NCBI GenBank assembly: GCA_964474445.1
Contig: CAYYSJ010000004.1
Coordinates: forward strand, 64,185-128,184
Length of the DNA: 64,000 bases
Reading direction: 5' to 3'
DNA from: an uncultured Gammaproteobacteria bacterium
GTDB taxonomy: Bacteria; Patescibacteriota; Microgenomatia; Levybacterales; UBA12049
Numbering within the stretch: position 1 is the first letter of the stretch; each line of letters opens with the position of its first letter. A program made the translations under genes and the position numbers. The notes beneath the pieces were generated by a model. That model had not been told where the DNA came from. It ran no database searches and was given only the letters and a program-made list of their open reading frames with translations. Below, piece after piece: positions 787 to 25,190 of this stretch.

Positions 787-1263
787 TTAGTTGGTTACTG
801 TCTCTTCTGTTGATTGTTTTGCTATGGGTGCAGGAGGGGCAACATTTTGTGTGGTATGTACAACTGCTTGAGATTCTGCGAGAAGTCCGCTCGCTTTATC
901 ACGTAAATCCTGTGGCGCTATCTGATATTTTAAGATATAGTCTGATGCACCCAATTTCATAGCGTTTTGCACGAGAGTGTCTTGATTAAAGTTGGACAAT
1001 ATTGCAACCGGAATATGTTTTGTATCTGGATCTGCTTTGAGAAGCTGTAATGCTTGGTTACCATTCATGTCAGGAAGTACTTGATCAAGGAAAATAACAT
1101 CAGGGTGTGTCATTTTTGCTTGATTCATCCCATCATTACCAGTTAAAGCTGTTATTACCACAATATTAGGATCCTGCTGGAGGGCTTGCTTAAAAACCTC
1201 TAAGATTGCTTCCTCATCATCGACAAGAAGAACTTTCATATATTTAGCTACTAAATAAATCAT
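787..1263 (-). CDS. CheY-like single-domain response regulator (receiver domain only)
   Basis: MKVLLVDDEE...DVIFLD...LP-DMNG...K fold with the conserved acidic pocket, phospho-Asp and Lys context. True start is probably the internal Met at 1239 (MKVLLV). Confidence 0.8.
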   Translation of the reverse strand: MIYLVAKYMKVLLVDDEEAILEVFKQALQQDPNIVVITALTGNDGMNQAKMTHPDVIFLDQVLPDMNGNQALQLLKADPDTKHIPVAILSNFNQDTLVQNAMKLGASDYILKYQIAPQDLRDKASGLLAESQAVVHTTQNVAPPAPIAKQSTEETVTN

Positions 1264-1315
1264 GACAGGAATAGTTACAGTGTGTCAAGTGGTTAGAGAA
1301 TTGCTTCAGATTCTT

Positions 1316-1657
1316 CTATGAAGGATTTTCTCTTGATCTTTGTTGAGCTGCTAGAATTCCATTCATAATTCGCCGTTCTTCATCTCTATTTCTTCTTATT
1401 ACCGACTCTTCATTATCTGTATGAGTATCAAAAACAAGGACCTGCTCGCGATCTCCATAATAGCCACTGTAAAACCGAGCGTCTCCTGGTACATCCCTTG
1501 TGCAATCTCCGTCCATTCCCACTATAAATACTCTTCTTTCTCCCACATAGGGAGCACCAGGTAATGGCCCAGGAAATCTTTGTTCATCTCTTACATGATT
1601 GATATATCGTGGCACTCCACAATAATCACCAATTTTTACTCTTCGTTCAATGGGCAT
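1316..1657 (-). CDS. hypothetical small protein; paralog of 31011..31361
   Basis: 113-aa ORF. Shares an RV(K/R)..DY...P..I.H...FPGP..P...RR block and a (V/I)(F/Y).T.H C-terminal motif with the 31011..31361 product. Confidence 0.5.
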   Translation of the reverse strand: MPIERRVKIGDYCGVPRYINHVRDEQRFPGPLPGAPYVGERRVFIVGMDGDCTRDVPGDARFYSGYYGDREQVLVFDTHTDNEESVIRRNRDEERRIMNGILAAQQRSRENPS

Positions 1658-1754
1658 TAGATTGGTTTCTGCAAATTATGGTATTCAAATATTATGATTT
1701 CTCAAGCTCGTGACAATTTGCTTGACAAAAACTAGACAATTACTATTTTGCCTC

Positions 1755-1783
1755 TTGACAAACATACAAGCTCATAGTATAAA
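1755..1783 (+). promoter_or_regulatory. sigma70-like promoter: TTGACA (1755-1760), 17-nt spacer, TATAAA (1778-1783)
   Basis: Read directly from the sequence. Predicted TSS near 1790, which would give a ~235-nt leader before the ATG at 2027. Confidence 0.5.
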
Positions 1784-1789
1784 TGTTGT

Positions 1790-2026
1790 TACAAACGACA
1801 TTGATGAGGAGCCCATTTGAATGGATCGAGCCTCGGAGTCGGTTCTCGAAGAAATCCTAAGCTGGTTGATGGAAAGTAGAGAACAAAAGAGCTGACACTT
1901 TCTGTCAAGGCATTTACAGAAAGTTTTTTAGTCAAAGGGACTAGTCAGGAAGAAGCGTGGCACCACGGTAAAGTCCGTCGCTTCAGGGCCTCAGTAAGGA
2001 GGCCTCTGAAGGGGCGGATTTTTTTT
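1790..2026 (+). promoter_or_regulatory. candidate T-box riboswitch leader (tRNA-sensing antiterminator/terminator) upstream of the MBL-hydrolase/argS operon
   Basis: Antiterminator helix A1 GAAGCG (1952-1957) pairs with CGCTTC (1979-1984). The 7-nt bulge TGGCACC (1958-1964) carries UGGN+ACC. Helix A2 is ACGG/CCGT with loop TAAAGT. The A1 3' strand overlaps a long terminator stem (CTTCAGGGCCTC-AGTAAG-GAGGCCtCTGAAG, 1981-2011) followed by T8 (2019-2026). An upstream weaker hairpin plus T6 lies at 1898-1929. Confidence 0.5.
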
Positions 2027-2638
2027 ATGGGAAAAATCTGCCATAATGCAGGTATGAATACAATTGACATCTTAATCGAAGGCTACGCGAAAATGACAGA
2101 TAGTGGCTGGGAAGCTAGTGGAACAACAACTCTTATTACCACTGACTCTGGTCTAAAAATTATTGCTGACCCAGGGGCAAATAGGGACTTGTTGTTTGAG
2201 CGCTTAAAAGAACGGGGGCTAGGTTTAGAAGATATTGATTATGTTTTTCTTACGCACCATCATTTAGACCATGCAATGACTGTTGGACTTTTCCCACAGG
2301 CGAAAGTAGTTGATCAGGAAGCAATTTATGTGCAGGATAAAGCGCAGGAAGGTCCCAAAATGATCCCTGATACTGATATTACTATATTGCCAACTCCAGG
2401 CCATGAAGTTGGACATGGGATACTTGTTGTACCAACTGCCCAAGGGACAGTTGTGGTGGCAGGAGATAACTTCTGGTGGACAGCAGAGGAGGAGCAAAAG
2501 CTTGATATTAACAAGCAAGATGATTTTGCCGAAGATATGGAAATCTTGAAGGCAAGTCGAAAGCAAGTCCTAGATTTGGCAGATTGGGTGGTTCCAGGGC
2601 ATGGGAAAATATTTGAGAATAAACGAATAGACCGATAA
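2027..2638 (+). CDS. MBL-fold metallo-hydrolase
   Basis: HHHLDH metal-binding motif (LTHHHLDHAM), a distal His (PGHE) and a terminal HGK. Start may instead be the Met at 2054. Only 6 nt separate it from argS, so they are probably co-transcribed. Confidence 0.8.
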   Translation: MGKICHNAGMNTIDILIEGYAKMTDSGWEASGTTTLITTDSGLKIIADPGANRDLLFERLKERGLGLEDIDYVFLTHHHLDHAMTVGLFPQAKVVDQEAIYVQDKAQEGPKMIPDTDITILPTPGHEVGHGILVVPTAQGTVVVAGDNFWWTAEEEQKLDINKQDDFAEDMEILKASRKQVLDLADWVVPGHGKIFENKRIDR

Positions 2639-2644
2639 GAAAAT

Positions 2645-4375
2645 ATGTTGAAAGAAGAATTAACACAAGCAATACAGCAAGTAGTGAAGCAATTAACAGA
2701 AAAGGAGATAATTTTTACTCTTTCTATTCCGAAAGAAAATAAAAATGGAGACTGGACTTCGAATATTGCTTTCCAACTTAGCAAAGATTTAGGCACATCA
2801 CCATTAGAAGCAGCCAATAAAGTTGTAAGTCTCTTGGAAGAAACCGGAAAATTTTCGGGAATTGTAAAAGCAGAGGCTGTTGCTCCTGGCTTTATTAATT
2901 TTTACCTTACAAACACCGAATTAAGCAGATGCATGTCTATTCTGCTAAATGATCCAGAAAAGGTTGGTAGGACGACTAAAATGAAAAATAAAAAGATGAT
3001 GGTTGAATTTGCTCATCCAAATACGCATAAAGAATTGCATATTGGCCACATGCGTACTCTCACAACAGGAGAATCCCTTGCAAGACTTTTCCAGGCAAAT
3101 GGTGCAGAAGTGTTTCGTGCGAATTATCAAGGAGATATTGGTCCTCATGTGGCAAAGGCAATTCATGGTATAGAAAACATGATGGCAGAGCAACAGCTTT
3201 CCCTTGAGGATATAGAGAAGTGGAGTTTTGTTGAAAAAGCTCATTTCTTGGGACAAGGGTATGCGAGGGGAAGTAAAGACTATGAAGAAGGGGCAAAAGA
3301 GGAGATAGACGCACTTAATGTTGCTTTATACAAAAGGGATCCGAAATATCAGGATATCTATCAACGCACCAGAAAGTGGAGTTTGGACTATTATGATGAA
3401 TTTTACACAAGGTTTTATACGAAGTTCGATAAGTTGTTTTTTGAAGGTGACTTAGATGAAGAAGCTGTGAAGATAGTTGCAGACAACATCGGAAAAGTCT
3501 TCCGCAAAGATCCAGATGGGTCAGTCGTTTTTTCTGGAGAGCCGTATGGACTTCATACACGAGTCTTTATTACACAAAAAGGAACCCCTACTTATGAAGG
3601 AAAAGAAGTAGCATTGGGCTTTGCTGAATACAATGCATTTCCATTTGATTTAAAAATCCATGTTGTGGCAAGCGAGCAAACAGGGTACTTCAAGGTAGTT
3701 TTCAAGGCAATGGAGATGATTGATTCTAAGAAGTTTGAAGGTCACGAATACCACCTTCCAATGGGTATGGTGCAACTTGTGGGAAGGAAAATGAGCTCCC
3801 GAACAGGTGATGTTTTAACTGTTGACGAGCTTTTGAATAAGGTCAAAGAAGCTGCTTCTCAACAATTTAGGGAGGATAAGTTAAGCGAAGAAGAAAGAGA
3901 AACCGTGCTTGAGCAAGTCACTATTGGGGCAGTAAAATATTCTATTCTGAAAGGAGGAGTTACCCAGAATGCACTTTTTGATATTGAAAAGTCTGTTAGC
4001 TTGCAGGGTAACTCTGGGCCTTACGTGCAATATACTTATACAAGAACACAAAGTGTGTTAGGAAAAGCAGATAGCCTGGAAACTCAAGCGGCTGATAATT
4101 ACAGCCCAGAAAAGGAAGAGATAGAGATTTTAAGAAAACTCTACCATTTTCCAGAGGTGGTTGAGGAAGCAGCTATAACCTACAGTCCCAATGTAGTGAC
4201 AGAGTATTTGTTTGAATTGTCCCAGTTATTTAACAACTTCTACCAGAGATATCGCATTTTGAATGCTCCAACTGATACAGAAAAAAGTTTTAGATTAGGC
4301 TTGACACAAGCAACAGGCATGGTCATCAGACAAGGTCTCAACCTTCTTGGTATCCAAGCTCCTGCAAAGATGTAA
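2645..4375 (+). CDS. argS: arginine--tRNA ligase
   Basis: Class I HIGH motif (HIGHMRT), KMSKS-like KMSSR, DALR anticodon-binding C-terminus ending in M. Length 576 aa. Confidence 0.95.
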   Translation: MLKEELTQAIQQVVKQLTEKEIIFTLSIPKENKNGDWTSNIAFQLSKDLGTSPLEAANKVVSLLEETGKFSGIVKAEAVAPGFINFYLTNTELSRCMSILLNDPEKVGRTTKMKNKKMMVEFAHPNTHKELHIGHMRTLTTGESLARLFQANGAEVFRANYQGDIGPHVAKAIHGIENMMAEQQLSLEDIEKWSFVEKAHFLGQGYARGSKDYEEGAKEEIDALNVALYKRDPKYQDIYQRTRKWSLDYYDEFYTRFYTKFDKLFFEGDLDEEAVKIVADNIGKVFRKDPDGSVVFSGEPYGLHTRVFITQKGTPTYEGKEVALGFAEYNAFPFDLKIHVVASEQTGYFKVVFKAMEMIDSKKFEGHEYHLPMGMVQLVGRKMSSRTGDVLTVDELLNKVKEAASQQFREDKLSEEERETVLEQVTIGAVKYSILKGGVTQNALFDIEKSVSLQGNSGPYVQYTYTRTQSVLGKADSLETQAADNYSPEKEEIEILRKLYHFPEVVEEAAITYSPNVVTEYLFELSQLFNNFYQRYRILNAPTDTEKSFRLGLTQATGMVIRQGLNLLGIQAPAKM

Positions 4376-11260: not shown

Positions 11261-11334
11261 CGTCCTCGAGAGGAGTCGAACCTCCGATCTTGCCCTTAGG
11301 ACGGGCCTGCTCTATCCAACTGAGCTACGAGGAC
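11261..11334 (-). tRNA. tRNA-Arg (anticodon CCT)
   Basis: Manual fold: acceptor GTCCTCG/CGAGGAC, D-arm GCTC-AGTTGGATA-GAGC, anticodon loop GTCCTAA (one stem mismatch), T-arm GGAGG-TTCGACT-CCTCT, discriminator G. 74 nt. Confidence 0.8.
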
Positions 11335-24100: not shown

Positions 24101-24487
24101 TTATTTTAGCTCGACTGTTCCGCCTGCTGTTGTAAGTTTTTCTTTTGCTGCATTTGCTGTTTCTTTATTAACAGCGGTTAAGACTTCCTTTGGAGCTGAG
24201 TCTGCTAAAGCTTTAGCTTCGGTAAGTCCGAGTGTTGGGACTAATTCTCTAATAGCTTTAATGACTGCGATTTTGTTTGCTCCTGCTGCAGTGAGAACAA
24301 CGTTAAATACGGTTTGTTCTTCAGCTGGTGCTGCTGCTTCAGCTCCTGCTGCTGCTGGTGCTGCGACTGCCATAGCTGCTGCACTAACGCCAAACTCTTC
24401 TTCCAAAGCTTTGACTATTTCAGAAAGTTCTAAAACAGACATTTCTTTTACTGCTGCAATTAATTCATCTTTAGTTAATTTTGCCAT
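24101..24487 (-). CDS. rplL: 50S ribosomal protein L7/L12
   Basis: [34 protein letters not shown] ... Ala-rich hinge ... TVELK. Start trimmed to the MAKLTKD Met. Confidence 0.95.
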
Positions 24488-24506
24488 CTTGTTCTCACCT
24501 CCTTTT

Positions 24507-25043
24507 TTACCCTTGCTTCTGTTTTTCAATAGCTGCAAGTGTCATAACAAACTTTTGTAAATTCCAAGCAAGTGCTCGGTGGAAGCCCTGGATTGGAGCT
24601 TTCATCATACCAAGCATCTGAGCAACCAAAACTTCTCGTGATGGGAGTGTTGCAAGCTTTGCAACATCTTTATCTGATAAGACTTGGCCATCCATCCAAC
24701 CAAATTTAACGGTTGGCTTTTCCACATCTTTCATCATTTTTGCGAGAGCTTTGAGTGGGGCAACAACATCACCATACAAAAACATAGTTCCTGTTGGTTG
24801 AACGAACTTATCTTCTTGTCCTTCTGCTTTATCTCCAAGAGCAATCTTAAGGAGAGTGTTTTTTGCAACAACATATTCAGCTTCTGCTTTTTTGATTTCT
24901 CTCTTGAATTCTTCAAGCTGCTTGTGGGTAAGGCCAGTGTAGTCAGTAAAGACCATTGCCTTTGATTTATTTACTTTTTCAGTAACTTCAGCGACAATGC
25001 CTTCTTTTTTGACTCTATTTTGTGATATTTTTACGTCTGCCAT
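24507..25043 (-). CDS. rplJ: 50S ribosomal protein L10
   Basis: [13 protein letters not shown]... typical L10. The ORF-track extension to 25187 is the untranslated leader. Confidence 0.9.
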
Positions 25044-25190
25044 AAAATAAAAAACTCGCCCAAAGCGAGTGAATGTTCTTTCGAACGGTTCTCCTCGGTA
25101 AGACTCACTTTTATGCTTACTGTCTTTAGATATATGTATTATAGCAAAGGGGAGAGGGGAAATGCAAGAAGAAGGAGGTTTAGGCATCTA
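25044..25190 (-). promoter_or_regulatory. rplJ 5' leader (probable L10/L12 autoregulatory leader region)
   Basis: ~147-nt untranslated region upstream of rplJ containing hairpins (e.g. ACTCGCCCAAAGCGAGTGA on +). Assigned by position. Confidence 0.35.

Follow-up and report, generated by a model that had tools for sequence, protein, structure and literature searches.

T-box riboswitches of the Class I transcriptional type (Rfam RF00230), such as those of Bacillus subtilis tyrS and of argS in Bacillus and Clostridia, combine a kink-turn (K-turn) and a side-bulge specifier codon followed by a purine, a GAA/AGUA S-turn in Stem II, a UGGN-ACC bulge between antiterminator helices A1 and A2, a terminator that shares strands with the antiterminator and runs into a U-tract, and a codon-matched aminoacyl-tRNA synthetase gene downstream. 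The same combination is found in the 64,000-nucleotide stretch of DNA analysed here (referred to as the window), in front of an operon encoding a metallo-beta-lactamase (MBL)-fold hydrolase and arginyl-tRNA synthetase (argS). Specifically, positions 1796–1984 form a T-box-type leader and positions 1973–2026 a competing intrinsic terminator. Judging from its motifs, fold and conservation, this leader probably functions as a T-box riboswitch that is specific for arginine and belongs to a divergent subtype, controlling the MBL-argS operon of a bacterium of the Patescibacteria, or Candidate Phyla Radiation (CPR), by transcription attenuation. Its mechanism and core are those of known T-boxes, its decoding arm is non-canonical, and its host radiation is, as far as the searched literature shows, a new one for T-boxes.

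Compared to the Class I systems, the window leader is without the distal platform of interdigitated T-loops (IDTM), has an A-U instead of a G.U pair at the base of A2, and replaces Stem IIA/B and Stem III by a three-way junction. Moreover, this leader and its homologs score 36, 20 and under ~15 bits against a gathering threshold of 93, and the host belongs, by its protein relatives, to the Patescibacteria/CPR. The lack of an elbow platform is shared with the translational ileS T-boxes of Actinobacteria (M. tuberculosis, N. farcinica; ‘intermediate’ or ‘ultrashort’ Stem I), as are the K-turn, the S-turn of Stem II and the hairpin that follows it, and the insertions in the discriminator domain (Stem III, top of helix A2) that are typical of that class (PMC7583486). 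An intermediate or ultrashort Stem I and insertions in Stem III or helix A2 indeed typify the translational Actinobacterial T-boxes (PMC7583486, PMC11297988). However, the window leader ends in a hairpin with a U8 tract rather than in a start-codon-adjacent sequestrator of the Shine-Dalgarno (SD) sequence, is directed at Arg instead of Ile, and stems from another phylum. With the glyQS T-boxes it has transcriptional attenuation and the codon-purine-helix layout in common, with the difference that glyQS leaders lack Stem II and have a long, platform-bearing Stem I, whereas the window leader has a short Stem I and does possess Stem II. T-boxes of argS are known from Firmicutes (PMC2494555), and the documented range of T-boxes comprises Firmicutes, Actinobacteria, Chloroflexi, Deinococcus-Thermus and Geobacter (PMC3766115, PMC2494555). 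A full-text literature search yielded no T-box report for Patescibacteria/CPR (including Saccharibacteria/TM7), which is not proof of novelty. The taxonomic peculiarity of the locus, already pointed out in an earlier note on this DNA, is reinforced by the placement of the host within this radiation.

A full T-box followed by the terminator was present in three lineages, being the window itself, locus L018 (MBL protein 79% identical) and the group L007/L008/L009/L017 (77% identical; from a Saccharimonadales metagenome-assembled genome), and these are referred to as the three T-box leaders. In the window, sequence, Rfam alignment and folding agree on an antiterminator at 1952–1984 of the plus strand, consisting of helix A1 (1952–1957/1979–1984; GAAGCG/CGCTTC, 6 bp), the 7-nt bulge UGGCACC (1958–1964) and helix A2 (1965–1968/1975–1978; ACGG/CCGT, 4 bp). 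All antiterminator elements proposed in the earlier note are therefore in place. When folded in isolation, this segment adopted the A1 / 7-nt bulge / A2 structure at –10.4 kcal/mol, and AGCGUGGCACCACG agrees at 12 of 14 positions with the T-box sequence AGGGUGGNACCGCG (PMC11297988). For the T-box core GTGGNACCRCG, 0.01 occurrences would be expected in the window and one is present, and relative to shuffled versions the stability of the folded leader corresponds to a z-score of –3.6.

The intrinsic terminator (1973–2026, plus strand) is composed of a hairpin of ~22 bp (1973–2018; –36.4 kcal/mol) followed by a U8 tract (2019–2026). Not only does it share the 3′ strand of A1 and end with its T8 at the ATG of position 2027, as was claimed before, but it also reuses the 3′ strand of A2, so that antiterminator and terminator are mutually exclusive (–10.4 versus –36.4 kcal/mol). 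The terminator hairpin, GTCCGTCGCTTCAGGGCCTCAGTAAGGAGGCCT(CT)GAAGGGGCGGAT followed by T7-8, is near base-identical in seven lineages (elsewhere located at 2463–2515 in L004, 2921–2975 in L006, about 2900–2960 in L012 and 2410–2467 in L016), with one compensatory C-G to U-A change in L012 and L016. When searched for as a dispersed repeat, its core had a single occurrence within the window.

The decoding arm upstream of this switch is a truncated (‘intermediate’) Stem I (1796–1841, plus strand), whose helices pair in the three T-box leaders with compensatory changes. Its K-turn comprises a C-stem (1796–1799/1838–1841; CGAC/GUCG), a 3-nt bulge AUU and a tandem GA, with CGAC-AUU-GA-UGAGG (1796–1809) and CCUCG-GA-GUCG (1831–1841) as its two strands. 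The C-stem and the adjoining helix (1805–1809/1831–1835; UGAGG/CCUCG) both covary in L018 and L007. At the apex, above the specifier internal loop, lies a 4-bp hairpin with a tetraloop (1813–1824), so that only 12 nt in the window, 19 nt in L018 and 22 nt in L007 are found above the specifier bulge; the Rfam alignment correspondingly places ~20 nt against the ~75 nt of the model’s Stem I. The codon CGA (Arg; 1827–1829) and the conserved purine G1830 are situated directly 5′ of the closing helix (feature 1827–1830, plus strand), and the 3′ side of the internal loop reads AU-CGA-G, in which two nucleotides, codon, purine and helix succeed each other as in classical specifier loops. At this position the window, L018 and L007 all have UCGAG, and CGA agrees with the amino acid of the synthetase encoded downstream. 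A Stem I offering an AGR or CGN codon, as the earlier note anticipated, can thus be folded, complete with K-turn and a CGA specifier bulge. Since CGA is the sole register that is conserved among the orthologs and that matches ArgRS, the specifier is, on this comparative basis, CGA (Arg).

Stem I is followed by Stem II (1842–1884, plus strand), in which an S-turn places GAA (1848–1850) opposite AGUA (1875–1878) as in the Rfam consensus with its GAA/AGUA columns. Covariation is seen in the basal as well as in the upper helix of Stem II, and L007 carries AAA instead of GAA in the S-turn. Next, the canonical Stem IIA/B and Stem III are replaced by a three-way junction (1885–1951, plus strand), all pairs of which hold in the three T-box leaders. 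This junction is built from a purine linker ending in RAG (1885–1891), a long-range helix CUGAC/GUCAG (1892–1896/1944–1948), a hairpin A (1898–1923) that is trailed by U6 (1924–1929), a hairpin B (1929–1943) and a closing GAA (1949–1951). The long-range helix, preceded by AAGAG (AAAAG in L018, ACAAG in L007) and followed by GAA, encloses two hairpins and is not a simple stem; in L018 it is lengthened by a matching 3-bp insertion (UCG opposite CGA). A canonical Stem III has purines on both sides (5′-RRRxG ... AA-3′), and the junction may correspond to Stem III and Stem IIA. Hairpin A has an invariant AAGGC loop and an invariant U6, and may represent Stem IIA, its loop pairing weakly with the linker through bases that never vary. 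Two other foldings were discarded, as an H-type pseudoknot of UGAC with GUCA around hairpin A is broken in L018 (GUAA), and Rfam’s own Stem III alignment (GACU with AGUC) leaves no loop and is physically impossible. As a separate observation, hairpin A (CUUUCUGU...ACAGAAAG) together with U6 (1898–1929, plus strand) resembles a weak terminator or hairpin-dependent pause, and is conserved in 3 of 3 T-box leaders. As a pause, it might buy time for a slower, platform-less tRNA capture.

Conservation of this architecture was assessed over 54 base pairs in a structure-guided alignment of the three T-box leaders, in which variable loops were padded with N and the 40–45-nt insertions that L007 and L018 carry in the loop of helix A2 were trimmed (a MAFFT alignment of the raw leaders was replaced, as it misaligns Stem II of L018). 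Standard pairs made up 98.7% of the cells, with 11 pairs changed on both sides and 8 on one side, and none of 500 shuffles reached the observed values. Sliding the 3′ partners by 1–3 columns reduced pairing to 36–46% and left 0–2 compensatory pairs. Compensatory changes affected the stems of the K-turn, the hairpin at the apex of Stem I, the two helices of Stem II and also hairpin B. Across the three leaders, UCGAG and UGGNACC are invariant and GAA/AGUA is kept (apart from AAA for GAA in L007), while the apical loops differ completely. Two independent homologous leaders, of the L018 and L007 type, hence maintain the architecture through compensatory changes, which bears out the conservation that the earlier note proposed to look for in related genomes. 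Invariant functional motifs and helices kept up by 11 compensatory pairs, next to diverging loops, point to purifying selection rather than decay in these leaders.

The homologous loci stem from an ArgRS genome scan (5 loci, 1 of them syntenic), a metagenome scan with the terminator core (2 loci, 1 a duplicate of L007) and contig look-ups of relatives, the latter revealing only two additional T-box-bearing lineages. A scan of viral contigs with the T-box core gave no match. Likewise, a covariance model built from the three leaders (R1) turned up neither an additional copy in 150 kb of window plus loci nor any remnant in the leaders that are without a T-box. In four lineages (L004, L006, L012 and L016), the promoter is almost directly followed by the terminator and the T-box body is missing, and seven lineages (L010/L011, L013, L014/L015, L019, L020/L021, L022 and L023) have no leader at all. 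Because L004 still retains the last ~30 nt of an L007-type A2-loop insertion, it must have lost its T-box by deletion. Such close lineages with T-box plus terminator, with the terminator alone or with neither constitute an unusually clear series of riboswitch loss.

With permissive filters, the Rfam model RF00230 aligns over all of its 219 positions to 1792–1985 at 36.1 bits, with an E-value of 1.6e-6 in a local scan and of 2.2e-4 when both strands of the whole 64-kb window are searched, where it is the best non-tRNA match. At gathering thresholds, Rfam leaves the T-box unreported and returns only two tRNAs from the window. A score under the gathering value of 93 is an outcome that the earlier note had listed as counting against a T-box, and 36.1 bits falls well short of that value. 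The low score is mainly due to the truncated Stem I. In the homologous leaders the same model gives 19.7 bits for the L007 type and reports nothing for L018 at E-values up to 1, because of which this subclass escapes standard annotation and is overlooked by threshold-based use of Rfam. Given the sub-gathering score, the absent distal platform, the A-U pair at the base of A2 and the three-way junction, the T-box can no longer be called ‘canonical’, as it initially was. The proposal that the leader governs an argS-containing operon through a terminator/antiterminator switch of the T-box type is, on the other hand, supported by motifs, fold and conservation alike.

The following model of regulation is a prediction from sequence as far as it concerns the binding of a tRNA, the isoacceptor involved, in vivo termination and any contribution of a putative second promoter. 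Transcription would start ~7 nt 3′ of the TATAAA box of the distal promoter. The short Stem I would then offer CGA and, together with the Stem II S-turn, clamp the anticodon of a tRNA-Arg (UCG, or ACG modified to ICG). When this tRNA is uncharged, its 3′ end GCCA could pair with UGGC of the 7-nt bulge and so stabilise the weak antiterminator (–10 kcal/mol), as a result of which the stronger terminator (–36 kcal/mol plus U8) would be blocked and transcription would read through into MBL-argS. Charged tRNA-Arg, in contrast, would be unable to dock, so that the terminator would form and transcription would end at 2019–2026. As Stem I has no elbow platform, tRNA capture must depend on Stem I and Stem II, comparable to the translational ileS T-boxes of Actinobacteria; T-boxes with a short Stem I that rely on Stem II have been experimentally established (PMC7583486, PMC11297988).

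Regarding the tRNA itself, ARAGORN and Rfam identify a tRNA-Pro(CGG) and a tRNA-Arg(CCT) in the window. The latter (11261–11334, minus strand) ends in ...CGAGGAC-G, with G at position 73 and CCA not encoded. The link to this tRNA-Arg(CCU) that the earlier note drew from the discriminator base holds as far as G73 fits UGGC, and fails at the anticodon, which reads AGG while the specifier is CGA. Because of this anticodon it is not the predicted effector, and a tRNA-Arg with anticodon UCG or ACG/ICG is the better candidate. The variable base of UGGN, the partner of the discriminator base of the cognate tRNA in T-boxes, is C in the window and U in both L018 and L007, and no tRNA genes were found in the fetched homologous loci.

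Several observations weigh against a functional riboswitch. The scores obtained with RF00230 are far under the gathering threshold in the window as well as in the homologs, and the covariation draws on three sequences only, in an alignment that was fitted by hand to the structure. The distal Stem I platform, which consists of the AG bulge and the distal loop, stacks on the tRNA elbow and is missing from most translational T-boxes, is absent, and there is no room for it, while transcriptional T-boxes are considered in the review literature to generally need a long Stem I with elbow platform (PMC7583486). In addition, a canonical Stem IIA/B pseudoknot could not be demonstrated, and no cognate tRNA-Arg gene lies in the window. 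The G.U wobble at the base of A2 serves as steric sensor of the aminoacyl group, and in the three T-box leaders the pair beside the bulge is A1965-U1978 and not this conserved G.U, with the U being kept. Finally, a conserved –10-like box 3′ of the terminator could free part of operon expression from the leader, and promoter and terminator are retained in L004, L006, L012 and L016, which do not have the T-box body.

The latter two points would also suit an explanation in which the T-box body is a mere relic and the working unit consists of promoter plus hairpin (as short RNA or constitutive attenuator), with argS being expressed from the proximal promoter and tRNA sensing being irrelevant. Four related lineages do retain the promoter and a near-identical terminator without T-box body, the residual ~30 nt in L004 attest to deletion, seven further lineages have no leader, and nearly everywhere the –10-like box stands 5′ of the MBL ATG. 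However, the three lineages with a T-box have invariant functional motifs and 11 compensated pairs next to freely diverging loops, which makes a relic unlikely. Promoter and terminator hairpin hardly differ in sequence between lineages whose ArgRS share only ~50–57% identity, and since this promoter-plus-hairpin unit is kept where the T-box is gone, it has a function independent of tRNA sensing; it could serve as an insulator, give rise to a short RNA or form a hairpin that is bound by a protein or by ribosomes.

The resemblance to ileS T-boxes raises the question whether the hairpin at 1973–2018 instead, or additionally, acts as SD sequestrator, giving a translational or dual output. Apart from the class-typical features (intermediate Stem I without platform, Stem III and helix A2 insertions, the latter of 40–45 nt in L007 and L018), its apex (1996–2003) carries an invariant and perfect SD-like UAAGGAGG, with GGAGG paired to CCUC. 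Yet in none of the lineages is there an AUG, GUG or UUG 5–13 nt 3′ of UAAGGAGG, the nearest ATG being 23 nt away and out of frame in L007, and a GC-rich ~22-bp hairpin that runs straight into U7-8 has the textbook form of an intrinsic terminator. Moreover, because the CCUC partner lies outside the antiterminator, formation of the latter would not free the SD. We therefore regard an SD sequestrator, alone or next to a terminator, as improbable, and a purely translational output as unlikely. Least credible of all is a specificity other than CGA. The bulge reads AUCGAG in the window and CUCGAG in the homologs, so that Ile (AUC) or Leu (CUC) one register upstream, followed by G, is formally possible, and the tRNA-Arg(CCU) of the window, which would read AGG, has the G73 that UGGC predicts. 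Both registers were rejected, given that orthologous leaders of this one operon disagree in AUC (window) and CUC (L018, L007) but share an invariant CGA, which fits ArgRS and occupies the classical codon-purine-helix position, and that AGG does not occur on the 3′ side of the specifier bulge.

The arginine-specific, terminating T-box hence remains the preferred interpretation. More tentatively, Patescibacteria/CPR could here have their first described T-box lineage, with a natural terminating T-box that works without elbow platform. It may descend from a translational T-box that was gained by horizontal transfer, changed in specificity to Arg and turned into a terminator. Such an origin is proposed because the decoding and discriminator domains resemble those of the translational ileS T-boxes of Actinobacteria. 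Actinobacteria are known hosts of Saccharibacteria. If this origin were true, the invariant SD-like hairpin sequence would be a fossil of the translational past. A conserved CPR T-box extends the range of these riboswitches to a large uncultured radiation with reduced genomes, in which gene regulation is barely known. The pairing of a platform-less Stem I with a classical terminator, which should be kinetically disfavoured according to current structure-function work, moreover offers a natural test of the need for elbow contact in co-transcriptional sensing.

The distal promoter of the leader (P1; 1755–1783, plus strand), as read from the sequence, consists of TTGACA (1755–1760), a 17-nt spacer and TATAAA (1778–1783), exactly where the earlier note had located it. 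The –35 box, a 17–18-nt spacer and a –10 box of the form TA(T/A)A(A/G/C)(A/T) are kept in all seven lineages that have either leader or terminator, and the spacing between this conserved promoter and the T-box is as expected. A promoter scan omitted P1, the scan rule demanding a T at position 6 of the –10 hexamer. Directly 5′ of P1 lies a conserved block (1720–1754, plus strand; GCTTGACAAAAACTAGACAATTACTATTTTGCCTC) that is near-identical in L004, L007 and L018 and partially present in L006 and L016. It is laid out as GCTTGACAA-N6-GACAATT...ATTTTGCC, with the (T)TGACAA motif being repeated, and separates the leader from a divergent 113-aa gene and response-regulator operon (787–1657, minus strand). 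This block may be an UP element or the binding site of a regulator.

A possible proximal promoter (P2) is suggested by an extended –10-like box, TGcCATAAT (2039–2047, plus strand), 6 nt 5′ of the MBL ATG. When loci were compared in this respect (window, L004, L006, L007, L012–L014, L018–L020, L022 and L023), a hexamer resembling a –10 box (CATAAT or TATAAT, frequently preceded by TGn) was present 6–13 nt 5′ of the MBL ATG in 11 of 13, and at exactly 6 nt in 7; L023 has TAGAAT at 6 nt. In most of the 13 loci, an SD is absent upstream of this ATG. The conservation of the box suggests a second, proximal promoter that would yield a leaderless or near-leaderless mRNA. As P2 would lie downstream of the terminator, the T-box would, if P2 is real, modulate rather than gate expression.

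The first gene of the operon (2054–2638, plus strand; Pfam Lactamase_B) encodes the MBL-fold hydrolase and the second (2645–4375, plus strand; Pfam Arg_tRNA_synt_N, tRNA-synt_1d and DALR_1) the arginyl-tRNA synthetase. With the MBL stop at 2638 and the argS start at 2645, the two are separated by the 6-nt gap reported before. The MBL gene was previously thought to start at ATG 2027, right behind the terminator. However, a recorded protein that is 100% identical (P0001, 194 aa) begins at ATG 2054, the N-terminus MNTIDILIEGY is kept in more than 50 homologs, and in L007 the frame opened by the upstream ATG meets a stop after 6 codons. For these reasons the ORF from 2027 was rejected, and 2054 is probably the start codon. 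The gene order MBL-argS-M16 peptidase is kept in every fetched locus, and throughout the clade MBL and argS stay paired, with the leader or without it. The MBL gene is thus the ancestral partner of argS rather than a housekeeping hydrolase inserted between leader and synthetase, as had been supposed.

The MBL-fold protein is ~190 aa long and tightly coupled to argS across CPR genomes. Its nearest solved structure is human MBLAC1 (4v0h, E = 6e-14), Pfam gives weak matches to Anti-Pycsar Apyc1, and homologs at 48–50% identity carry DPANN archaea labels. In L014, a YbaK-like tRNA_edit gene stands between the MBL gene and argS. A role of the protein in RNA or tRNA metabolism is possible. In L004, the MBL gene is a 10-codon stub (MNTIDIVIEG*; 2715–2747), and the start of argS (2893–2993) is flanked by a run of N with duplicated sequence on either side, which suggests an assembly or scaffolding artefact.

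All named relatives of ArgRS and of the MBL protein are Patescibacteria/CPR (Saccharimonadales, Levybacteria, Paceibacterota, Shapirobacteria, Woesebacteria and similar), and these protein relationships indicate that the host is a Patescibacteria/CPR bacterium. The records of the syntenic relatives L001/L011 (GCA_035631115.1), L002, L004 and L012 are labelled ‘Candidatus Eisenbacteria’ or ‘uncultured Gammaproteobacteria’, and that of L007 Saccharimonadales. Errors of binning or classification probably account for the non-CPR labels.

Elsewhere in the window, at 25040–25147 of the minus strand, Rfam L10_leader gives a sub-threshold match (29.5 bits against a gathering threshold of 44; E = 0.73) directly upstream of rplJ (within ORF 24507–25187) and rplL (24101–24538), which is probably a genuine, divergent L10 autoregulatory leader.

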